From an uncultured delta proteobacterium (lineage in GTDB: Bacteria > Desulfobacterota > Binatia > UBA9968): DNA of 64,000 bases. Shown here piece after piece: positions 43,741-53,738 of this stretch (position 1 is the first letter of the stretch; the number at the start of each line of letters is the position of its first letter). The notes below the pieces were generated by a model. It saw only the letters and a program-made list of their open reading frames with translations. It had not been told where the DNA came from and made no database searches. The position numbers and the translations under genes are program-made. The DNA is taken from NCBI GenBank assembly GCA_963804165.1, contig CAWDPO010000046.1:128001-192000 (forward strand), written 5' to 3'.

Positions 43741-44424
43741 CTATTTCTCCATGATGATGACCGAGTATCCGGCCTGGGTGAGTTGGCGGGCGCGCTCTTC
43801 GGCGTCGGCCCGGCTTGTAAAAGTTCCCAGGCTCACCCGGTAATAGGTGGTATCTTTGGATTGGAGCGGCGTGATGGTCACCTCACTAAATGATTTGGCA
43901 ACACGGTCACGCAGCTGCCGAGCGTTTTCCAACTGGGAAAACGAGCCAAGTTGCAAGGTATAATCAAGCGAAGCGCGCACCGTCTGTATCGGTATTGGGC
44001 TGTCGAGGACATCGACGCGAACCAGCGCCGTGCCGGGCCCCACCATGTTGAGCGCCTGGGCGGCGGCGTAAGAGAGATCGATAATCCGGCCCTTGGCGAA
44101 CGGCCCGCGATCGTTGATCGTGACTTCGGTGGCGCTGCCGGTTTCCGTGTTGGTGACCATGACGCGCGCGCCGAGGGGCAGGGTTTGGTGCGCGGCAGTG
44201 AATTCGTTCTGGTTGTAGATGGTGCCGCTCGCCGTGGCCTTGCCGTGGAATCCAGGACCGTACCACGACGCGATGCCGACTTGACTGACTGGACTTTCGG
44301 GGAGCGGCGGCAGACGTACCTTGCTTGGCGGTATCGAGCAACCAATGACGAATGCGAAGAGCGGAAGTAGATTAATGGCTCTGGCGCGACGGAACTTCGA
44401 GGTAGAGCCGATCAATCTGGACAT
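43741..44424 (-). CDS. rlpA: Septal ring lytic transglycosylase RlpA with SPOR domain
   Basis: GIASWYG, TAAHQTLP and INDRGPF...IIDLS; SPOR YTLQLGSF...YRVSLG; lipobox IGC. Start uncertain. Confidence 0.92.
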   Translation of the reverse strand: MSRLIGSTSKFRRARAINLLPLFAFVIGCSIPPSKVRLPPLPESPVSQVGIASWYGPGFHGKATASGTIYNQNEFTAAHQTLPLGARVMVTNTETGSATEVTINDRGPFAKGRIIDLSYAAAQALNMVGPGTALVRVDVLDSPIPIQTVRASLDYTLQLGSFSQLENARQLRDRVAKSFSEVTITPLQSKDTTYYRVSLGTFTSRADAEERARQLTQAGYSVIIMEK

Positions 44425-44679
44425 GAGCGCGGCCCGATACGTCATTGCCGCCGAATATATCGGAAAGTGCAACGAGAAAAAAGCAATCGTTGCAGAATAG
44501 CTTAGCGCATGACCAATTTATCAACTTGTAAGTGTAATGTTGGCCTTCAACCCCAAGGATGAACGTGACCAGGGGTGAAATCGGACGATCGCGTCGCAGC
44601 TTATCCTTCGGCCCAGCGTGGTTTACGCAGCGTAGGGTTTATGATAGTTTACCAACGATTTTAAAGGGAAGGTTCTTTT

Positions 44680-45426
44680 ATGTCCGGTCATTCTAAGTGG
44701 AGCACGATCAAGCATAAAAAAGCGGCCAAGGATGCTAAGAAGGGCAAGCTTTTCACCAAGTTCATCAAAGAGATCACGGTCGCTGCACGCATGGGTGGCG
44801 GGGATTTGAATTCCAACCCGCGTTTGCGCACCGCGGTGCTGACCGCCCGCGCGCAGAGCATGCCCAACGAAAACATTGAGCGGGCGATCAAGAAGGGAAC
44901 CGGCGAGCTCGAAGGTGTGACCTACGAAGAAATTCAGTACGAAGGTTACGGCCCCGGCGGCGTGGCGATCATCGCGCAGGTTTTGACCGACAACAAAAAT
45001 CGCACGGTCTCCGAGATTCGCCGGATGTTCACCAAGCATGGCGGCAACATGGGTGAGACCGGCTGCGTTTCCTGGATGTTCGACAAGAAGGGATTGATCA
45101 CCGTAGAAAAATCACAAGTCGATGAAGATCGTCTGATGGATGTCGTGCTCGATGCGGGCGCCGAAGACGTGCGCGACGAAGGCGAGATCTTTGAAGTGGT
45201 CACCCGGCCGGAAGATTTCGAAAAGGTGAAAGATCGCCTGGATCAGGAAAAGATCGCCGTTTCGAGCGCGCAGGTGACTCTGGTGCCGAAGAACTCCGTC
45301 GACGTCGATGCCAAAAATGTGGAACAGGTTTTAAAACTCAGCGAAGAATTGGAAGATCACGACGACGTGCAAAGCGTCGCCGCAAACTTTAATATTCCCG
45401 CCGAATTGATGGACAAGGCGAGCTGA
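44680..45426 (+). CDS. yebC: YebC/PmpR family protein
   Basis: [15 protein letters not shown] and TDNKNRT; directly upstream of ruvC. Confidence 0.95.
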
Positions 45427-45439
45427 ACCGGTGGCGCCG

Positions 45440-46021
45440 ATGCCAAAGAGCAGCGCCAAACCGCCCAGCGAAATCATCCTCGGCATCGATCCCGGCTCGC
45501 TGGTGACGGGCTGGGGGCTCGTCGAGGTCACAGGCAACCAACTTCATCACATTTCCCACGGAACGATTGTGACCACCACGGCCGTCGGATTGCCGTTGCG
45601 CTTGAATCAGATTCACCGCGGATTGCGCGAAGTCATCGAGCGCTACCGACCTTCGGCCGTGAGCTTGGAGAAGGTATTTTTTTCGCGCAACGTCCAGAGC
45701 GCGCTAAAGCTCGGCCAAGCGCGCGGAGTGGCGTTGCTTGCGACGGCGGAGCGTGAGCTTGGCGTCGCTGAATATTCCGCCGCGGAAGTCAAAGTGGCCG
45801 TGGTGGGTTATGGCCAGGCGACCAAAGAGCAGGTGCAGCGGATGGTAAGTGTGCTGCTCGGTTTGCGTGGCGCGATCCGTGCCGACGCGGCCGATGCGCT
45901 GGCCAGCGCTATTTGCCATGCGCATCGGCGGACGTTCCAAAACCTGGTGATTCGATCGATGAATGGGCGGGTTAAAGCCACCAGCTGGCGTGACTATCTC
46001 GAAACGGCTTCGCGGCGCTGA
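45440..46021 (+). CDS. ruvC: Holliday junction resolvase RuvC
   Basis: ILGIDPG, LEKVFF, LGQARG and DAADALA. Confidence 0.95.
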   Translation: MPKSSAKPPSEIILGIDPGSLVTGWGLVEVTGNQLHHISHGTIVTTTAVGLPLRLNQIHRGLREVIERYRPSAVSLEKVFFSRNVQSALKLGQARGVALLATAERELGVAEYSAAEVKVAVVGYGQATKEQVQRMVSVLLGLRGAIRADAADALASAICHAHRRTFQNLVIRSMNGRVKATSWRDYLETASRR

Positions 46022-46065
46022 GGGCCACGGCGAAGGTCGCTTCCTCATCGCATGCAAATCTTGAC

Positions 46066-46659
46066 GTGATCGCCCAACTTCATGGAACGTTAGCCCAAAA
46101 GATTCCCGGCGAAATCATCGTTGACGTCGGCGGCGTGGGCTATCAGATATTTATCCCCCTCAACGTGTTTTACCAGTTGCCGGAAATCAACGCGCCGGTG
46201 AGCTTGCAGATACACACCCATGTCCGTGAAGATGCGTTGCAGCTTTTTGGTTTTCGCGATTTTACCGAGAAGCAAGTCTTTCTGCTGCTCATCGGTGTCT
46301 CGGGAATCGGTCCGAAACTGGCCATCAATATCTTGTCCGGCATCCCAGCAGAGGAACTGGCTCGCGCGCTACGAGAAGGCGATCAACCGCGGTTGATCGC
46401 TATTCCCGGTGTGGGCCGGAAACTCGCCGAGCGCATGATGGTTGAGCTGAAGGACAAGTTCGCAACCTTAACGCCGATCGGAGCCGAGAGCGTGAAAGCC
46501 GAAGGCACTTCGCAAATGCTGCTGGACGCGGTTTCGGCGCTGGTCAATCTGGGTTATAAAAGACCTGACGCGGAAAAGGTGGTGCGAGAGGTTCTCAAAA
46601 AAGGCGACCATTCATTGGAAAGCGCGTTGAAAGAGAGCCTGAGGCTGCTGAGCCGGTAA
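46066..46659 (+). CDS. ruvA: Holliday junction branch migration protein RuvA
   Basis: DVGGVGY, HVREDA.QLFGF, VSGIGPKLA and ALVNLGY. Confidence 0.95.
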   Translation: MIAQLHGTLAQKIPGEIIVDVGGVGYQIFIPLNVFYQLPEINAPVSLQIHTHVREDALQLFGFRDFTEKQVFLLLIGVSGIGPKLAINILSGIPAEELARALREGDQPRLIAIPGVGRKLAERMMVELKDKFATLTPIGAESVKAEGTSQMLLDAVSALVNLGYKRPDAEKVVREVLKKGDHSLESALKESLRLLSR

Positions 46660-46689
46660 GTTCCGGCGGGCGCGGCGCTGATTTGAATC

Positions 46690-47715
46690 ATGCTCAACGG
46701 AATCAAAATCGACGAAGACTTAACTTTCGAAGTTAACTTGCGGCCGCGCGGGTTCGACGAATACGTCGGCCAAGAACATGTCAAAGAGAATCTCAAGGTC
46801 GCGATCACCGCGGCTCAAGCGCGCCAGGATGTGCTCGATCATATTCTCTTCCACGGCCCGCCGGGATTGGGCAAAACCTCTTTAGCCTATATCATCGCAC
46901 GCGAGATGGGGGTCAACATTAAAGCCACTTCCGGGCCGGTGGTCGAGCGTCCCGGCGACCTCGCCGCGCTCCTGACCAATCTCGAAGAGGGCGATGTTCT
47001 GTTCATCGACGAGATTCATCGTCTGAATCACGTGGTCGAGGAGGTGCTCTATCCGGCGATGGAAGATTATCAGATCGACATCATGGTCGGTCAGGGGCCG
47101 GCTGCACGCTCGATCAAACTGCCGCTCAAGCACTTCACCCTGATCGGCGCGACCACCCGCTCCGGCCTTTTGACTTCGCCGCTGCGCGATCGCTTCGGCC
47201 ATATTCATCGGCTCGACTTCTATGACACCGACGCGCTCTCTAAAATTCTTAAGCGCTCGGCCGCCATTCTTGCCGTTCGGGAGGAGAACGACGGCATCGC
47301 GGAAATCGCATGCCGTTCGCGCGGCACGCCACGCATCGCCAATCGGCTGCTGCGCCGGGTGCGCGACTACGCGCAAGTGAAAGGCGACGGTACGATCACC
47401 AAGCGGCTAACGGATGAAGCGCTCCACATGCTGGAGGTCGACCGGATAGGGCTGGACAAGATGGACACGATGCTGCTCGTGACCTTGATCGATAAATTTG
47501 CCGGCGGTCCGGTCGGCGTGGAGACCTTGGCCGCCGCCATCGGCGAAGAGAAGGATACCATCGAGGACGTTTACGAGCCATTTCTGATTCAGGCTGGTTT
47601 CATTCAAAGAACGCCGCGCGGGCGAGTAGCGACCGCGCTGGCATTTGATCATTTCGGCAGAACACAAAAAAGCTCCGCGGCGAATCATCCGCGAAAACAA
47701 CCGAGTCTGTTTTGA
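46690..47715 (+). CDS. ruvB: Holliday junction DNA helicase RuvB
   Basis: [31 protein letters not shown] and RTPRGR. Confidence 0.97.
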
Positions 47716-47762
47716 CCGGGCCGGGTTGCCGGCGCATGATTTCGAGCTGACAGGCGTAGAGA

Positions 47763-47975
47763 ATGGGGGAATTTGGCAAGACGCTGATCTATCTTGGCAT
47801 TCTCTTGGTGATTGTCGGAGTGATTTTTTCGCTGGCGGGCAAGTTGCCCGGGCTGGGAAATTTGCCGGGGGATATTACCATCCAACGGGAGCGCTTCACG
47901 TTCTATTTTCCGCTTACGACATGCATTCTCATCAGCGTGATCATTTCTCTTGTCCTTTATTTTTTTAGAAGGTAG
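47763..47975 (+). CDS. DUF2905 small membrane protein
   Basis: LGNLPGDI...FYFPLTTCILIS. Confidence 0.85.
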   Translation: MGEFGKTLIYLGILLVIVGVIFSLAGKLPGLGNLPGDITIQRERFTFYFPLTTCILISVIISLVLYFFRR

Positions 47976-48012
47976 AATTTTTCAACCGTATTAGCCCTTG
48001 TTCAGGGCGCTT

Positions 48013-50244
48013 ATGGAAGCAGCCAATCCCGCCAACTACGTCGAGCAAAGCCTCAAAATCGAGGAAAACAAACGCCGCAAGCGCGAGGGCATCGTGATCC
48101 TCGTCACCGCGCTGATGGTTGCGGCGCTGATTTTTTTCGAAGTGCAGCTGCCTGATGTTGCCCCGGAGTATTCGCTCGGCAGCAATATTGTTTTTTTCCT
48201 ACTGATCAATGTCAATATTATCCTGCTGGGTTTGCTCGTCTTTCTGGTCGTTCGCAACTTGGTCAAGCTGGTCGTCGAGCATAAGCGGCGCATGCTCGGT
48301 TCTCGCCTGCAGGCGCGCTTGGTTGTGGCCTTTGTCGCCATGGTACTGGTTCCCAGCGTATTAATGTTCGTGATCGCGGGAGGTTTGTTGCGGCGGTCGT
48401 TTGACCGTTGGTTTGATTCCAAAGTCGAAAGCGCGCTGCAAGGGTCGTTGGAAATCGGCCAAACCTACTACCAAAACTCCGCTAACAATGCGCTTTTTTA
48501 CGCGCGTCAACTCAGTCAGCGGATCACGGCGGAAGGGCTCGTCGACCAGCCACGCTTGGCCGAGCTGAAAAAGTTCGTCGAGACCAAGCAGCGCGAGTAT
48601 AATCTCGGCACGGTGGAGCTGTTTTCGCCCGACGGTCAGCCGTTCGTAGTGGCCTTCAATCAGCAGGTGCCGACCGGGGTCACGATCAAGCCGGAAAGCG
48701 AATTTCTAAATCGGGCTTTGCGCGGTCTCGAAGTGACGCGCACTCAAGCGTTCGGCGACGGTGATGTGATTCGCGGCGGAGTGCCGATTTACGCTCGCGA
48801 TAAGCGGATCATCGGCGTGGTGGTGGTCGACTATTATGTGCCCAAAAGCATTTCCAAGCGGGCGATCCAAATTTCTCAGTCCTATGAACAGTACAAGTAT
48901 CTGACGTTTCTCAAGGCGCCGGTCAAAAATAGTTATCTACTGACCATGCTGTTGATTACGTTGGTGATCATTTTCGCGGCGACGTGGTGCGGTATCTATT
49001 TGTCCAAAGGGATCACCGTGCCGATCCAAAAACTCGCTGAGGGCACGCATCAGGTGGCGCAGGGAAACTGGGATTATAAAATTGAGGCCGGGGGGGATGA
49101 TGAGATCGGCGTATTGGTCAATTCGTTCAATCAGATGACCGCTGATTTGAAACGGATTAAGCTCGAGCTCGAGCGGCGCGGCAACGTGGTGCAGACCCTG
49201 TTGGCGAACATCGCTGCCGGCGTCGTATCCGTCGACCCGTCCGGTAAGATCACCACTTGGAACAAGGCTGCCGAGCAGATTTTAGGAGTGGCGGTGGATC
49301 GCGCGTTGGGAAAACACTACCAAGAGGTGTTTCGCGCCGAGCCCTTGCGCGGGATTCGCGAGATCGTGGACAGCGTCAACGGAGGCGAGAGCGTCGAACG
49401 AGAGATCAAGCTGTCGTTGCACGAGCAGTTGCGCAACGTGGTGGTCAGCGCGGCGACGCTGCACGACGACGACGGTTCAATCCTAGGCATGATGCTCTTT
49501 CTCGAGGACATCACGCAAATTCAAAAAGTTCAAAGGATGGAGGCCTGGCGCGAGGTGGCGCGGCGTATCGCGCACGAAATCAAAAATCCGCTCACGCCGA
49601 TCCAGTTATCCGCGGAGCGGCTGCGCAAGCGCTATGCGAAGATCTTGGCGGAGGACGGCGAGATTTTCGACAAGTGCACCACGACGATCATCCAGCAGGT
49701 GGACGATCTTAAAAAACTCGTGAATGAATTTTCCCAGTTTGCCCGCCTGCCGTCCGCTCAGCTTATGTCGCACGATCTCAACGAAATCGTCGGTGAAGCT
49801 TTGGTGCTCTTCAAGGAAGGGCATTCCGGTATTCAATTTCAATTTCGCCCCGGCGCGATCCCTCCGGTGGAGCTTGATCGGGACCAGATGAAACGAGTGC
49901 TGATGAACCTCTTGGACAACGCGGTCGCCGCCGTACAAAGCAGCGGAGAAATCAAGCTGGCGACGAACCACGAAAGCGCGCGCGGCAAGGTGACTCTGGA
50001 AGTCGCGGACAACGGCTGCGGACTAGCGCCTGAGATTAGAGCTAAGATTTTCGAGCCCTATTTTTCCACTAAGGAAAACGGCACGGGCCTGGGTCTAACC
50101 ATCGTAAGCCAGATTGTTGAAGATCATCGTGGCTATATTCGCGCATGGCCCAACGATCCCCAGGGGACGCGTATTATCATCGAATTGCCGGCGGGGCAGG
50201 ATACGGTTATTCCGGTTACGGTGAAAAATGCGCTACACTCTTAA
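48013..50244 (+). CDS. ntrY: NtrY-type membrane sensor histidine kinase (TMs, periplasmic domain, HAMP, PAS, HisKA, HATPase)
   Basis: H-box EAWREVARRIAHEIKNPLTPIQLSAERL; HAMP DDEIGVLVNSFNQMT; FEPYFSTK..GTGLGL. Confidence 0.9.
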   Translation: MEAANPANYVEQSLKIEENKRRKREGIVILVTALMVAALIFFEVQLPDVAPEYSLGSNIVFFLLINVNIILLGLLVFLVVRNLVKLVVEHKRRMLGSRLQARLVVAFVAMVLVPSVLMFVIAGGLLRRSFDRWFDSKVESALQGSLEIGQTYYQNSANNALFYARQLSQRITAEGLVDQPRLAELKKFVETKQREYNLGTVELFSPDGQPFVVAFNQQVPTGVTIKPESEFLNRALRGLEVTRTQAFGDGDVIRGGVPIYARDKRIIGVVVVDYYVPKSISKRAIQISQSYEQYKYLTFLKAPVKNSYLLTMLLITLVIIFAATWCGIYLSKGITVPIQKLAEGTHQVAQGNWDYKIEAGGDDEIGVLVNSFNQMTADLKRIKLELERRGNVVQTLLANIAAGVVSVDPSGKITTWNKAAEQILGVAVDRALGKHYQEVFRAEPLRGIREIVDSVNGGESVEREIKLSLHEQLRNVVVSAATLHDDDGSILGMMLFLEDITQIQKVQRMEAWREVARRIAHEIKNPLTPIQLSAERLRKRYAKILAEDGEIFDKCTTTIIQQVDDLKKLVNEFSQFARLPSAQLMSHDLNEIVGEALVLFKEGHSGIQFQFRPGAIPPVELDRDQMKRVLMNLLDNAVAAVQSSGEIKLATNHESARGKVTLEVADNGCGLAPEIRAKIFEPYFSTKENGTGLGLTIVSQIVEDHRGYIRAWPNDPQGTRIIIELPAGQDTVIPVTVKNALHS

Positions 50245-50263
50245 GAGAAAATCAGGAGGATCT

Positions 50264-51565
50264 GTGGAAGAACCGGCGGCGCCAAAGACGATTTTAGTTG
50301 TGGATGATGAGGACGGAGTGCGCGAGTCTGTGCGCGAAGTCCTAAGCGACGAAGGTTATCGGGTCGTGGACACCGCCGATTGCACCCAGGTGCTGCGGAT
50401 CATTAAGGAACAGAAACCCGAGCTGGTTTTGCTCGACATCTGGATGCCGCAGATGGACGGGATCGGTTTACTCAAAGAGATCAAGACCCAGGAACCGGAC
50501 ATTAACGTCGTCATGGTTTCCGGCCACGGCAATATCCACACGGCGGTTACCGCGACCAAGTTTGGTGCCTTTGATTTTATCGAGAAGCCAGTGTCCCTGG
50601 ACGGGCTTTTGTCAACTGTGCAGCGTGCTTTGGGGGAAATGCCCGGAGCAAGCGAGCCTAAGCACGCCGACAGTCGGGCGAGAAGATTGCGCAGTGCGAG
50701 GGGCATGTCCACATCGAGAAACGTACCCCTGAACCAGAGCATTAAGCAGCGGACTTTGAAGAAGAGCGTGGTGCTTTCCGGACAGGGTCTACACTCCGGC
50801 GTGAAAACCGGACTCATTTTGCATCCATTGCCGCCGCATAACGGAATCCTTTTCACCGGCATCTCAGGTGATGTTACCGTACCCGCCCACCTGGACTATG
50901 TGGGCTCGACGGGTTACGCGACTTCGCTGCGCTCTAAAGATTACGCGGTCGGCACCGTCGAGCATTTGCTCGCGGTGTTACATAGCTACAGCATCACCAA
51001 CCTTCTGGTCAAGGTGCAGGGCGAAATCCCGATCTTGGATGGTTCTGCGGTGGAGTTTTGTCAGGCCATCGAAGAGGCCGGGATCCAGGAGGAAGACGAG
51101 GAATGTGCGGCGATCGTCATCGAACGGCTATACCGGGTAGGTGCCGAAGGCGGCGAATCGATCAGCATCGAGCCCGCGGAAGGGTTTTCCGTGCGCTACG
51201 TTTTGCGCTATCCGAAGCCGGTCGGCGAACAGGAACATACCTACGTGTTTCAGGGAGCCGAATATTTCAAAACCGAGATTGCCCCTGCGCGCACGTTCGG
51301 ATTTCTCAAGGACATCGCGCAGCTGCAGAACATGGGATTGGCGAACGGCGGCCGGCTCAGTAATTTCATACTGATCGACGATGAGAAAATCGTCAACACC
51401 GAATTGCGTTACCCCAATGAGTTCGCGCGCCACAAGATCCTCGATATTCTCGGCGATCTATATCTGCTCGGCAGACCGATTCGCGGCGCGGTGACGGCCG
51501 TGATGACCGGACACTCGGACAATATTGCTTTGCTGCGCCAGGTTCGCGAGGGCATGAAACTCTAG
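50264..51565 (+). CDS. lpxC: Fusion of an NtrX-like receiver domain and UDP-3-O-acyl-GlcNAc deacetylase LpxC
   Basis: One uninterrupted ORF: REC (VVDDE, LLDIWMP, VSGHG, FIEKP), a linker of about 36 aa, then LpxC (KQRTL...GLHSG, TVEHLL, PILDGSA, ARTFGF, HKILDILGDL, GH). AGGAGG RBS precedes GTG 50264. Confidence 0.92.
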   Translation: MEEPAAPKTILVVDDEDGVRESVREVLSDEGYRVVDTADCTQVLRIIKEQKPELVLLDIWMPQMDGIGLLKEIKTQEPDINVVMVSGHGNIHTAVTATKFGAFDFIEKPVSLDGLLSTVQRALGEMPGASEPKHADSRARRLRSARGMSTSRNVPLNQSIKQRTLKKSVVLSGQGLHSGVKTGLILHPLPPHNGILFTGISGDVTVPAHLDYVGSTGYATSLRSKDYAVGTVEHLLAVLHSYSITNLLVKVQGEIPILDGSAVEFCQAIEEAGIQEEDEECAAIVIERLYRVGAEGGESISIEPAEGFSVRYVLRYPKPVGEQEHTYVFQGAEYFKTEIAPARTFGFLKDIAQLQNMGLANGGRLSNFILIDDEKIVNTELRYPNEFARHKILDILGDLYLLGRPIRGAVTAVMTGHSDNIALLRQVREGMKL

Positions 51566-51615
51566 GGGAGAAAGAATCAGGTCGACTCAAAGTTGGCCCG
51601 GCAAGAAGATTTTTT

Positions 51616-52065
51616 ATGGATTCCCAAGGCAATTTTCCGCGACTTTTTACTATTGACGAAGCTAACGGTTTGCTGCCTACACTGCGACCGCTGGTGGAGC
51701 AGATTCTGGAGAACATCCGGCGCCTGAAGGGCGCCAGTGAAACCGTGATTCGCCGAGAAGCGCTCGACCCCGAGGCGCCCAATCTCATGAATCGGCTGCG
51801 CGACGACGCCGAGGTTGCGCGGTTGGTTGGGCAGGTAAAGGGTTGGGTCGACGAAATCAATAGTTATGGCTGCGTGTGTAAGGGGGTGGAGCAGGGGTTG
51901 ATCGATTTTCCCTGCCTGTTCGGCGCGGAAGTCGTTTTTCTTTGCTGGCAGATTGGTGAGTCGAACGTAGGTTTCTGGCATCGCATCGAAGACGGTTTTG
52001 CGGGCCGCAAACCCTTACTCGACGGTGAAACCGCCGATCCCGAAACCAAAGTCTCCTATCACTGA
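51616..52065 (+). CDS. DUF2203 family protein
   Basis: FTIDEANGLLP...GLIDFP...FLCWQIGE...WH...GFAGRKPL. Confidence 0.85.
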   Translation: MDSQGNFPRLFTIDEANGLLPTLRPLVEQILENIRRLKGASETVIRREALDPEAPNLMNRLRDDAEVARLVGQVKGWVDEINSYGCVCKGVEQGLIDFPCLFGAEVVFLCWQIGESNVGFWHRIEDGFAGRKPLLDGETADPETKVSYH

Positions 52066-52143
52066 CCGGCCATGGCGAAAAGTTAACCAAGTTTCACCGC
52101 CCTTCAAGCGATAGCCTCGCCGTTAGGCGTATCCGGGTTTGCC

Positions 52144-53316
52144 ATGAAGCATCCGCTACAGCGTGCCGAAGCTCCCTTATCGCTTCAGGTCAAGGAAAAA
52201 GCTCAAACTTTGGGTTTCGAGCTCGTCGGAATCTCAGCGGTGAGGCCGCCGCCCCACGAACAATCATTCGCGCAATGGCTGCGTCAGGGCTTGGCCGGCA
52301 AGCTGGCCTACATGGAACGCACGGAGTGGCTGCGGCGCGATCCACACCAGCTGGTGCCGTGGGCGGTCTCTGTGATCTCCGTGGGGATGAACTATCACAC
52401 CGGATACTCGCGTCCGGCTTCAACGCGTACCCGTGGATGGATCTCGCGCTACGCTTGGGGGGACGACTATCACGACGTGATGTCGAGCAGGTTGGAGGCG
52501 CTGCTCGCGAGTGTCAAGGAGCTCCACGACGGTCACGTCCAGGGGAAAGCCTTTGTCGATTCGGGTCCCGTGATGGAACGAGACTTCGCCGGCATCGCCG
52601 GGCTCGGTTGGATCGGCAAAAATACTCACCTCATTTCGCCCCGCAAGGGCTCGTGGTTTTTTCTGGGAGAATTGTTTCTCGATTTGCCGCTCGCTTACGA
52701 TCGGCCGATTCGCGATCGCTGCGGTGCCTGCGAATTGTGCCTTCATGCTTGCCCCACGGGCGCCTTTGTCGGTCCCTACGTGCTCGACGCGCGGCGCTGT
52801 ATCTCCTATCTGACCATCGAGCTGAAAGATTGGATGCCCCGATCGTTACGTCCGCTCGTTGGCAATCATATTTTCGGCTGCGACATCTGCCAGGAGATTT
52901 GTCCCTATAACATCAAGGCGGGCGCGACCGAGGAGCCTGCGTATCAGCCAAGAGCCGGACTGCATGCGCCGGAACTGATCCCGCTGCTGTCCCTGACTGA
53001 AGATGAGTTTCGCCAACGCTTCCGCGGCAGTCCGATTCTGCGCGCCAAACGGCGTGGGTTTTTGCGCAACGTTGCGGTCGCTCTCGGAAATCTTAAGAGT
53101 GTCGAAGCCGTGCCGGCATTGATGCGCGCCATCGAGGATGAGGAGTCTTTGGTGCGCGGTCACGCCGCATGGGCGCTGGGCCAAATCGGCTCTCGGATCG
53201 CAATCGATGCTCTACAGCTTCGCATGCAAACTGAGTTGGACGCCGACGTTCGGAGCGAAATAAAAGACGCACTCAAGACCCTTGGGGCGGAAGACGATCT
53301 CGCCACGCGCGTCTAA
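52144..53316 (+). CDS. queG: Epoxyqueuosine reductase QueG with C-terminal HEAT repeats
   Basis: SRYAWGDDYH, GWIGKN, CGACELCLHACPT, CISYLTIE and GCDICQEICP. Confidence 0.95.
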   Translation: MKHPLQRAEAPLSLQVKEKAQTLGFELVGISAVRPPPHEQSFAQWLRQGLAGKLAYMERTEWLRRDPHQLVPWAVSVISVGMNYHTGYSRPASTRTRGWISRYAWGDDYHDVMSSRLEALLASVKELHDGHVQGKAFVDSGPVMERDFAGIAGLGWIGKNTHLISPRKGSWFFLGELFLDLPLAYDRPIRDRCGACELCLHACPTGAFVGPYVLDARRCISYLTIELKDWMPRSLRPLVGNHIFGCDICQEICPYNIKAGATEEPAYQPRAGLHAPELIPLLSLTEDEFRQRFRGSPILRAKRRGFLRNVAVALGNLKSVEAVPALMRAIEDEESLVRGHAAWALGQIGSRIAIDALQLRMQTELDADVRSEIKDALKTLGAEDDLATRV

Positions 53317-53738
53317 CGGGGAGCGGCCTTTAGTGCGTCTTCGAAAATTTTCGGGATTCGAGTGACATGACCCGCGTGATCGATACATGCGTGCTTCGTC
53401 GAGCCGGTTGCGAGCAAACATGTGTCCGGTTCGCGTGAGATTCGATAGTTGAAAGAAAGCGAGGCTCGGCCCATCGCCGCCAGTTCGGTCTCGATCTGAA
53501 TGACTTCGTCGAAACGGGCCGACTGGCTATAGTGACAGTTCACATCCGCCACTGGAAAGTGGAAGCCCGCCCGTTCGATGGTGGAGTAGGGGAGGCCGAT
53601 TTGTCGCAGAAACTCCGATCGGCCGCGTTCGAACCAACGCAGATAATTGGCGTAGTAAACCACTCCCATCTGGTCGGTATCGCCGTAAATTACCCGGTAT
53701 GAAGTGACGTTGGTAATCTTCGCGGGTGATTTTTTCAT
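53313..53738 (-). CDS. YbgC/FadM-like hotdog acyl-CoA thioesterase
   Basis: YGDTDQMGVVYYANYLRWFERGR. Confidence 0.9.
   Translation of the reverse strand: MKKSPAKITNVTSYRVIYGDTDQMGVVYYANYLRWFERGRSEFLRQIGLPYSTIERAGFHFPVADVNCHYSQSARFDEVIQIETELAAMGRASLSFNYRISREPDTCLLATGSTKHACIDHAGHVTRIPKIFEDALKAAPR

Follow-up and report, generated by a model that had tools for sequence, protein, structure and literature searches.

UDP-3-O-acyl-GlcNAc deacetylase (LpxC) is the zinc enzyme that commits UDP-3-O-acyl-GlcNAc to lipid A. This committed, flux-controlling step is a long-standing antibiotic target, and its regulation beyond the Enterobacteria is an open question. Response regulators of two-component systems can have enzymes as outputs, as in CheB (receiver-methylesterase), PleD and WspR (receiver-GGDEF) and RpfG (receiver-HD-GYP). 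Here we analysed a stretch of 64,000 nucleotides, hereafter the window, from an uncultured soil delta proteobacterium (GTDB lineage Desulfobacterota; Binatia; UBA9968; GenBank assembly GCA_963804165.1, contig CAWDPO010000046.1, positions 128,001 to 192,000), in which an NtrY-type sensor histidine kinase gene is directly followed by a gene that fuses a receiver (REC) domain to LpxC. The locus would represent a two-gene, two-component system with an enzyme as its output, and its sequence suggests that lipid A synthesis is probably switched here directly by the two-component signal and not via gene transcription.

The closest described systems connect lpxC with a kinase and regulator through its transcription. 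In D. vulgaris, lpxC is the single target of DVU2934, which is found in an operon with the kinase DVU2931, and in S. fumaroxidans lpxC is located directly upstream of the orthologous operon (Rajeev 2011, PMC3333781). In D. alaskensis, strong upregulation in a mutant of the kinase Dde_3000 was confined to lpxC. This gene has both a sigma54 site and, at -101, an activator site, and Dde_3003 belongs to the sigma54 activators (Kuehl 2014, PMC4045070). In the Alphaproteobacteria, NtrYX lowers lpxC transcripts in both R. sphaeroides and Caulobacter. Its loss in R. sphaeroides raised the lpxC transcript 8.8-fold, with no NtrX site upstream of lpxC, and lipopolysaccharide (LPS) approximately 2-fold (PMC7240162, PMC12444477).

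The kinase gene of the window spans positions 47998-50244 on the plus strand and codes for 748 amino acids (aa) from TTG 47998, with its TAA stop codon at 50242-50244. An earlier note on this DNA, made from the letters alone, had placed the start at 48013; this is indeed the first ATG of the frame, although the longest open reading frame (ORF) begins at the TTG. All five domains of an NtrY-type kinase were recovered above the Pfam cut-offs, namely NtrY_N at residues 33-230 (48094-48687; PF19312, 35.6 bits for a cut-off of 23.2), HAMP at residues 335-385 and PAS at residues 399-505 (together 49000-49512), and the transmitter module made of HisKA (residues 517-585, with the H-box AHEIKNPLTPI) and HATPase_c (residues 627-732) at 49546-50193. 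Hydropathy analysis indicated hydrophobic segments at residues ~28-133 and ~307-337, and the loop of ~170 aa between them is presumably extracytoplasmic.

As the earlier note had described, the REC-LpxC frame comes directly after this kinase. The fusion gene (50264-51565, plus strand, stop codon at 51563-51565) likely starts at GTG 50264, since the called protein of the window (P0001) has 433 aa and a Shine-Dalgarno-like AGGAGG (50254-50259) lies 4 nt 5' of this in-frame GTG. With this start, the two genes are 19 nt apart on the same strand. The longest open frame in the ORF list extends from ATG 50228 to 51565 and encodes 445 aa; residue numbers of the 433-aa protein plus 12 give those of the 445-aa ORF. 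On the 445-aa frame, Pfam assigned residues 22-131 to Response_reg (50291-50620; 109.6 bits, E-value 1.2e-31) and residues 174-439 to LpxC (50747-51544; E-value 1.1e-81). The latter match, to PF03331, reached 274.7 bits (cut-off 27) and covered profile positions 1-266 of 268, and the NCBIfam lpxC equivalog TIGR00325 was passed with 245.9 bits (cut-off 187.25).

The receiver has the residues of a phosphorylatable domain: the acidic DD pair, the phospho-Asp within LLDIWMP, the Ser, the aromatic switch and the Lys of EKP. The predicted phospho-acceptor is encoded by the GAC codon at 50435-50437 (D70 of the 445-aa ORF, D58 of the 433-aa protein). The best solved relatives of the receiver were 4d6x and 5m7n, which we take to be Brucella NtrX, and the best NCBIfam regulator model was also NtrX (NF051870), with 138.7 bits vs a cut-off of 600 and a match over model positions 3-169, in the REC part only. 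The extension of this match to position 169 was read as alignment run-on into the linker. NtrX proteins combine REC, AAA+ and Fis-type helix-turn-helix (HTH) domains and score at least 600 bits, whereas neither Pfam nor NCBIfam found an AAA+ or HTH domain in the fusion protein, as the earlier note had remarked. The fusion protein is therefore an NtrX-like receiver but not NtrX, and the absence of the AAA+ domain also places it outside the sigma54-dependent enhancer-binding proteins of the NtrC family.

Solved LpxC chains could be aligned to the LpxC part along its full length, and its motifs TVEH, ARTFGF, HKILDxxGD and GHSxN match the same motifs in the top-scoring ones. Its catalytic and zinc residues are, in 445-aa numbering, E245/H246 (50960-50965), H402/K403/D406 (51431-51445) and H429 (51512-51514). 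We take TVEH to supply one zinc ligand (His) and HKILD two (His and Asp), and the catalytic residues to be Glu, His, Thr and Lys; these roles are presumed from the LpxC of E. coli and P. aeruginosa, and those of the receiver switch residues from CheY. In an alignment of 57 short fusions (433-aa numbering from here on), D14, D15, D58, S86 and K108 of the receiver were invariant (57/57), as were E233/H234 (TVEH), H390/K391/D394 (HKILD), D398 and H417 of LpxC. F105, at the aromatic-switch position, and T344 (ARTFGF) were each kept in at least 90% of them, and D58 was invariant in both fusion alignments. All the residues that the earlier note had pointed out (the receiver set and the equivalents of E78/H79, T191, H238/K239/D242 and H265) are thus present and invariant or nearly so.

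The linker between the two Pfam domains (residues 132-173 of the 445-aa ORF, 50621-50746) is rich in Ala, Ser, Arg, Gly and Pro, and its position is close to the 50636-50743 first proposed. Its length varied from 23 to 61 aa across the 57 homologues, and its mean majority fraction was 0.20, vs 0.72 for REC and 0.73 for LpxC. MAFFT scattered the linker, nothing in it was conserved and no HTH remnant was visible within the short linker. Compared with 22 close relatives (69-83% identical), the ratio of nonsynonymous to synonymous substitution rates (dN/dS) was 0.050 for REC, 0.064 for LpxC and 0.51 for the linker. The receiver is under purifying selection as strong as that of LpxC. Furthermore, 14 LpxC positions were specific to the fusions (shared by at least 90% of the 76 fused and at most 20% of the 16 free proteins), four of which directly follow TVEH (H240, Y242, L247 and K250; window ~50981-51013) and form a candidate docking patch, nothing more. 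The position of K250 is mostly Glu in free LpxCs, a charge reversal in the fused forms.

The fused gene was carried by 40 of the 41 genomes of the same order, which answers the earlier proposal to look for the Response_reg plus LpxC architecture across genomes. A full-length match in one frame over both domains was obtained in 34 genomes, and contig ends cut the other six. With this query, genome G019 (same genus, 91% complete) gave no REC-LpxC or LpxC-level match, its best match being a receiver paralogue (E-value 1.5e-24), and three genomes (G003, G004, G015) had one or two stops within their REC-LpxC match. Both PF00072 and PF03331 were present in every one of the 120 best metagenome proteins. 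The linker, for which an assembly check over 50600-50760 had been suggested, was bridged by contigs of three soil runs from three studies (50563-50923, 50603-50753 and 50597-50844) with 0-2 substitutions and no indel. The soil-run contigs cover parts of 49900-51600, no single contig spanning the whole, and one of the three bridging runs may be the source sample. As to expression, no RNA data set was listed for 49900-51600. The earlier note had also considered translation of LpxC only from an internal ATG at 50705. This was not supported: the in-frame Met occurs in only 1 of the 57 homologues, and the G-rich stretch before this ATG ends 1 nt from it. Altogether, the fusion is real and conserved, and not an artefact.

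In the window's genome, a metagenome-assembled draft (7.5 Mb, 46 contigs, 81% complete, 5% contamination), the fusion is the single LpxC (PF03331) match and the neighbouring kinase the single NtrY_N match. No NtrX equivalog was found in this 81%-complete assembly, the best NtrC-type paralogues reaching 393 bits for a cut-off of 600; the search for another lpxC or ntrX, which had been proposed as a check, was thus negative. Synteny with ntrY, also proposed for checking, proved frequent. Among 93 unique loci, considering those with at least 2 kb of flank, an NtrY-type kinase was located directly upstream in 45/55 short and 13/16 long fusion loci (58/71). In addition, the receivers of the fusions, both short and long, grouped with those of unfused NtrY partners in one clade (support of 96 in the Shimodaira-Hasegawa-like approximate likelihood ratio test, SH-aLRT), which stands apart from the 12 NtrC-type paralogues of the window's genome.

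To describe the wider family, we tallied by hand a sample of 301 genomes of the phylum. The nearest named contigs are labelled as metagenome-assembled genomes (MAGs) of Candidatus Binatia, Deltaproteobacteria or Thermodesulfobacteriota. A full-length short match was found in 41 genomes, including that of the window, and 10 more had frames of 450-497 aa, bringing the short forms to 51. Five of these ten frames were checked (L083, L256-L259), and all were REC-LpxC with the receiver in frame upstream, so they were not read as LpxC-FabZ. Long frames of 554-837 aa were found in 25 genomes, and the five that were checked all had REC in frame; most of the other genomes have a stand-alone LpxC of ~300 aa with ~40% identity. 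G150, G183 and G116 have frames of 1007-1423 aa that suggested a kinase-REC-LpxC triple fusion, but the kinase is in another frame in all three, and these lengths arise because G+C-rich sequence stays open. The 150 best representatives of clusters at 50% identity included 18 short forms that matched full length in a single stretch (down to 36% identity), 4 short forms that matched in two stretches, and 15 two-stretch matches of 650-736 aa that were read as long forms. The family is large, with dozens of 50%-identity clusters, and public annotation names its members LpxC, or NtrX at the Joint Genome Institute (JGI).

The long form comprises REC, Sigma54_activat, AAA_lid, a Fis-type HTH and LpxC in ~730 aa, and comes just after an NtrY-type kinase. 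Walker A was kept in 16/17 long fusions, while Walker B DE, GAFTGA and GNVREL were each found in 0/17, and their Sigma54_activat scores were 49-93 bits vs 235-239 bits for unfused regulators. By these motifs and scores, the AAA+ of the long fusions is degenerate. A MAG labelled Nitrospinota contains a REC-AAA+-LpxC without the Fis-type HTH and with no recognisable Walker A (L067:4992-7025, plus strand), which may represent a step between the long form and the short one. Similar HTH-less forms (P0136 and P0316, 681 aa) were observed outside the window's phylum by NCBI label, including on marine (Tara) contigs.

The LpxC-domain tree (85 rows) separated all fused proteins, as a single clade, from 6 free LpxCs of the phylum (SH-aLRT 98), and the REC+LpxC tree (64 rows) likewise separated 55 fused proteins from 9 unfused pairs (SH-aLRT 100). 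Since the fused proteins form one clade on both trees, a single fusion event would be the simplest reading. The trees come from IQ-TREE in its quick search mode, have SH-aLRT values as their sole support and include several long branches, and for the REC and REC+LpxC trees close relatives above 72% LpxC identity were thinned to every 4th and every 3rd, respectively. One unpublished genome (G005, locus L006) contributes one row to the short-fusion alignment, the trees and the dN/dS set and also counts among the 41 genomes of the order and the 21 scanned for LapB, and no claim depends on it alone. Changes between the short and long states numbered five on the LpxC tree, where well-supported branches force two, and three on the concatenated tree, where they force one; neither tree settles the number or direction of AAA+/HTH losses. 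We infer that the long form preceded the short one, because REC-AAA+-HTH is the native regulator architecture. The earlier suggestion that the fusion arose by loss of the AAA+/HTH part agrees with the living REC-AAA+-HTH-LpxC and HTH-less REC-AAA+-LpxC forms, but the trees do not add a direction or number of losses to it.

The likely starting point of the fusion was found among unfused relatives. NtrY_N kinases were present in 231 of the 301 sampled genomes, and in a hand tally of the genomes listed in both scans, free LpxC and kinase were adjacent in 14 genomes and not in 18. A kinase-centred sample contained 80 named loci, of which 66 were evaluable: lpxC was directly upstream in 31, 7 short and 1 long fusions were downstream, and 27 had neither, some of these ending too soon after the kinase to reveal a fusion. 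Ten adjacent unfused loci, picked because their coordinates suggested adjacency, were inspected. In nine, lpxC and ntrY were followed by a gene for a REC-AAA+-HTH regulator of 453-485 aa, and a DUF4390 gene lay between lpxC and ntrY in eight. The unfused regulators have GAFTGA (10/11), Walker B DE (11/11) and GNVREL (10/11), motifs by which they are true sigma54 activators and not classical NtrX. A sigma54 -24/-12 element was present at most 150 nt upstream of lpxC in 7 of the 10 loci, for an expected 0.035 per 150 nt. Farther out than this element, a TGTG-N10-CACA palindrome was observed upstream of lpxC in 5 of the 10, for a background of 4 matches in 885 kb. Neither the window nor 450 kb of short-fusion loci contained the palindrome, and in 156 kb of long-fusion loci it occurred twice, far from the operon.

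These loci bear on two proposals of the earlier note. One was that the kinase could regulate LpxC instead of acting through transcription, and it gains from the finding that unfused relatives have an activator, a sigma54 promoter and a palindrome, cis elements that are missing at fused loci. The other, an ancestral ntrY-ntrX-lpxC arrangement, did not hold in that form: the commonest unfused order is lpxC-(DUF4390)-ntrY-response regulator, and the regulator is a GAFTGA-bearing sigma54 activator.

The intervening DUF4390 gene encodes 185-247 aa with a signal-peptide-like N-terminus (95 bits; L109:1447-2019, plus strand, and the spacers of L108, L110-L113, L115 and L116), and its product is probably a periplasmic accessory of NtrY. 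A tblastn match to DUF4390 lies just upstream of the kinase in 35 of the 80 kinase-centred loci by hand count. It was not found in the window's genome, and the control genomes gave no match either. A tighter variant, with lpxC 150-250 nt upstream of ntrY and no DUF4390, was observed in seven loci with Desulfuromonadales/Geobacteraceae labels (L261, L262, L264, L265, L269, L271 and L294). Genome G074 has two LpxCs: a free lpxC directly upstream of ntrY (L117:5130-8484, minus strand), where no regulator gene was found after the kinase, and a divergent REC-LpxC (L084:2468-3793, minus strand) with 42% identity, a long branch, catalytic residues kept and no kinase nearby. This fused copy may be that kinase's only regulator.

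Based on these comparisons, we propose that the pair in the window descends from an lpxC-dedicated circuit in which an NtrY-type kinase acted on a sigma54 activator, and the activator on the palindrome and sigma54 promoter of lpxC. The regulator would have become fused to LpxC, the product of its target, and its AAA+ module would have decayed. The proposed steps lead from a separate activator to a fusion with a dead AAA+, then to loss of the HTH and finally to REC only, the AAA+ and HTH parts being gone in the window's lineage. Because the kinase family of the relatives drives lpxC transcription and the transcriptional parts are gone in fused loci, the kinase would now face LpxC itself and signal to the enzyme instead of a promoter. 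It would set the phosphorylation state of Asp58 (Asp70 in the 445-aa ORF), and through the Ser86/Phe105/Lys108 switch face the packing of REC against LpxC, or dimerisation beside it, would shift, raising or lowering deacetylase activity. We give a probability of roughly 0.55 to this reading, in which the kinase sets D58 phosphorylation and thereby alters LpxC catalysis intramolecularly. As in CheB, the unphosphorylated receiver could restrain LpxC and phosphorylation release it. That phosphorylation is activating is a tentative choice, at somewhat less than even odds, made because of the CheB analogy and the sign of the ancestral circuit, where a phosphorylated activator would yield more LpxC. 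More speculative, and rather doubtful, is a closed, transcription-free loop in which the NtrY loop and/or PAS domain reads envelope or LPS status, sets LpxC activity within seconds and replaces the function of FtsH/LapB/YejM, the lineage recording the stepwise conversion of a transcription factor into an allosteric domain.

Several points weigh against intramolecular control of LpxC by the kinase. The linker is long and unconserved, and the sequence gives no evident fixed interface between REC and LpxC; a receiver on such a loose tether could work via other partners. dS in the dN/dS set is close to saturation (~1.8). The kinase is not adjacent in 10/55 short and 3/16 long fusion loci, where pairing relies on an NtrY_N kinase elsewhere in the genome, and with a genome 81% complete, a second lpxC or ntrX could be unassembled. 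Gene order and cis elements, and not sequence, are our grounds for inferring that the unfused circuit is orthologous to DVU2931/DVU2934, and the spacing of TGTG-N10-CACA is not identical to that of the published Dde_3003 site. Used alone, the published 16-nt Desulfovibrio sigma54 site gave a list of 120 chance matches, none beside lpxC, and the published activator site combined with a gapped sigma54 site gave 0 matches. Among the 80 loci listed by the kinase-alignment scan there was no Desulfovibrio or S. fumaroxidans record, and L122, inspected as a possible Desulfovibrio-like operon, was ruled out. Finally, the sign of signalling is uncertain because the D. alaskensis kinase lowers regulator activity in laboratory conditions (PMC4045070).

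The receiver might instead determine how much LpxC there is, or where, and not its catalysis. Phosphorylation would then unmask or conceal a degron or an adaptor-binding face, as in receivers of the RssB or CpdR type, or would promote dimerisation or membrane association, with the kinase setting turnover. The long flexible linker would suit such a tethered, partner-recruiting module, and the C-terminal tail that we assume to carry the FtsH degron in E. coli is missing from the fused LpxC, whose alignment to E. coli chain 4mdt spans residues 2-275 of the 305 in that chain. Where studied, LpxC is under proteolytic control, by FtsH/LapB/YejM in E. coli and possibly by Lon in some Alphaproteobacteria, according to a review (PMC12444477). 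The LapB equivalog NF008757 did not exceed its cut-off in 21 genomes of the order (at most 48 bits, TPR-level), but this model passes only E. coli among 14 controls, so its non-detection says little. With PF18073, the one match in the window's genome was RadA, and 10/14 controls were also matched. Moreover, the locus has no linked gene for a protease or an adaptor, its neighbours being ruvCAB, DUF2203 and queG, and the fused-specific positions after TVEH fit an intramolecular contact, though they are compatible with turnover too. We consider regulated turnover or localisation unlikely, although it is the strongest of the rival readings.

Still less probable is a fusion with no regulatory effect on LpxC, serving co-expression only, with REC as a phosphate sink or signalling to unlinked partners, or with LpxC as an input reporting substrate load. 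Fusing neighbouring genes with linked functions can be neutral, the linker shows no conservation, and of the 71 fusion loci whose upstream flank reaches at least 2 kb, 13 no longer adjoin the kinase. However, the receiver is constrained (dN/dS of 0.050 vs 0.064 for LpxC, five signalling residues invariant in 57/57), which makes a neutral fusion unlikely, and the fusion persists through dozens of 50%-identity clusters. The short forms have no other output domain and no NtrX equivalog was found in the genome, which would leave the kinase without an output, and the transcriptional elements of lpxC are lost exactly where the fusion exists. Lastly, although the genome is a draft of 46 contigs with 5% contamination and frames are broken elsewhere (LpxB with 4 stops, three relatives with stops inside the REC-LpxC match), an artefact by mis-assembly or collapsed deletion, or a separate LpxC made from ATG 50705, is scarcely credible and was set aside because of the uninterrupted architecture in 34 full-length copies of the order, 57 aligned homologues and 51 of 301 phylum genomes, the three runs bridging 50597-50923, the dN/dS values, and the rarity of Met 50705 with its G-rich stretch so near the ATG.

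The flanks of the locus (43741-47715 and 51616-53738) contain ordinary housekeeping genes, and no further lipid A gene adjoins it. Upstream are an RlpA-like protein with DPBB and SPOR domains (43741-44472, minus strand), a YebC-like protein (44680-45426) and RuvC-, RuvA- and RuvB-like ORFs (ruvCAB, 45431-47715), the last two entries named by eye from translations. Downstream are DUF2203 (51616-52065), QueG (queG, 52144-53316) and a small thioesterase-like ORF, also named by eye (53313-53738, minus strand). A scan of 47600-52200 for sigma70 promoters and terminators did not exceed shuffled sequence (3 vs 2.2 and 7 vs 6.0, respectively); TTGTCC-17-TAGAAT at 47950-47978 is a mere possibility of a promoter. 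No sigma54 element was found between positions 44000 and 52000 of the window. Elsewhere in the genome, the only LpxB match (G000:C2:111553-112255, minus strand) is broken by 4-6 stops across two pieces, either an assembly error or a pseudogene.

Full-text literature searches, as far as the texts retrieved extend, returned no paper describing a receiver-LpxC or NtrX-LpxC fusion, or LpxC as a regulator output. A 2025 review of lipid A regulation in the Journal of Biological Chemistry (PMC12444477) has no mention of fused/fusion, bifunctional, receiver, response regulator, Desulfovibrio or sigma-54. REC-LpxC is a candidate for a new response-regulator output class and a new mode of LpxC control, visible in domain databases and seemingly undescribed. 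If true, a receiver wired to LpxC would be a new regulatory principle of envelope homeostasis as well as a new class of two-component enzymatic output, with forms also found in MAGs labelled Nitrospinota, beyond the window's phylum by label. The series of unfused, long and short forms would offer a rare natural example of regulation shifting from promoter to protein. As a 'Rosetta stone', the fusion would give independent support to the NtrYX-lpxC link known from the genetics of Alphaproteobacteria and Desulfovibrio.

Compared with the described systems, the locus shares most with Desulfovibrio, which we take to belong to the Thermodesulfobacteriota/Deltaproteobacteria. DVU2931/DVU2934 and Dde_3000/Dde_3003 are apparently from the same phylum as the window, whose relatives are labelled Thermodesulfobacteriota or Deltaproteobacteria. 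The order lpxC-ntrY-response regulator, of the type reported for S. fumaroxidans, was found in 31/66 evaluable kinase loci, and unfused loci of the window's relatives likewise have a sigma54 promoter and a palindrome before lpxC. In contrast to the separate DNA-binding sigma54 activator of Desulfovibrio, the receiver of the window is covalently joined to LpxC, with no AAA+ or HTH and with no sigma54 element or palindrome. The kinase shares its NtrY_N-HAMP-PAS-HisKA-HATPase architecture with alphaproteobacterial NtrY (R. sphaeroides, Caulobacter, Brucella), and the receiver is closest to NtrX both by solved structures (4d6x/5m7n) and by NCBIfam model. Presumably NtrX also lacks GAFTGA, as do the long fusions. 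NtrX is a transcription factor that acts pleiotropically on dozens of targets and indirectly on lpxC, whereas the output here is the enzyme itself.

Proteolysis by FtsH/LapB/YejM in E. coli is likewise post-translational and addresses the same committed step, but its mechanism and components differ: the fused LpxC does not have the C-terminal tail of the E. coli enzyme, and LapB was not detected in 21 genomes, a weak test. The LpxC-FabZ bifunctional proteins (NF009667) are another natural LpxC fusion, and the LpxC part of the window protein matches this model with 209.8 bits, below the cut-off of 465 and with no FabZ part. In LpxC-FabZ the partner is a C-terminal metabolic dehydratase, whereas in the window it is N-terminal and belongs to signalling. 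RpfG-type regulators are mentioned in a preprint (10.1101/2021.11.05.467447). The fusion protein has the layout of CheB, PleD, WspR and RpfG, with the receiver at the N-terminus, the enzyme at the C-terminus and a flexible linker between them, and by analogy phosphorylation would be expected to lift autoinhibition or bring about dimerisation. Those outputs are signalling enzymes, whereas the output here is a zinc amidase with a biosynthetic role, in lipid A synthesis.

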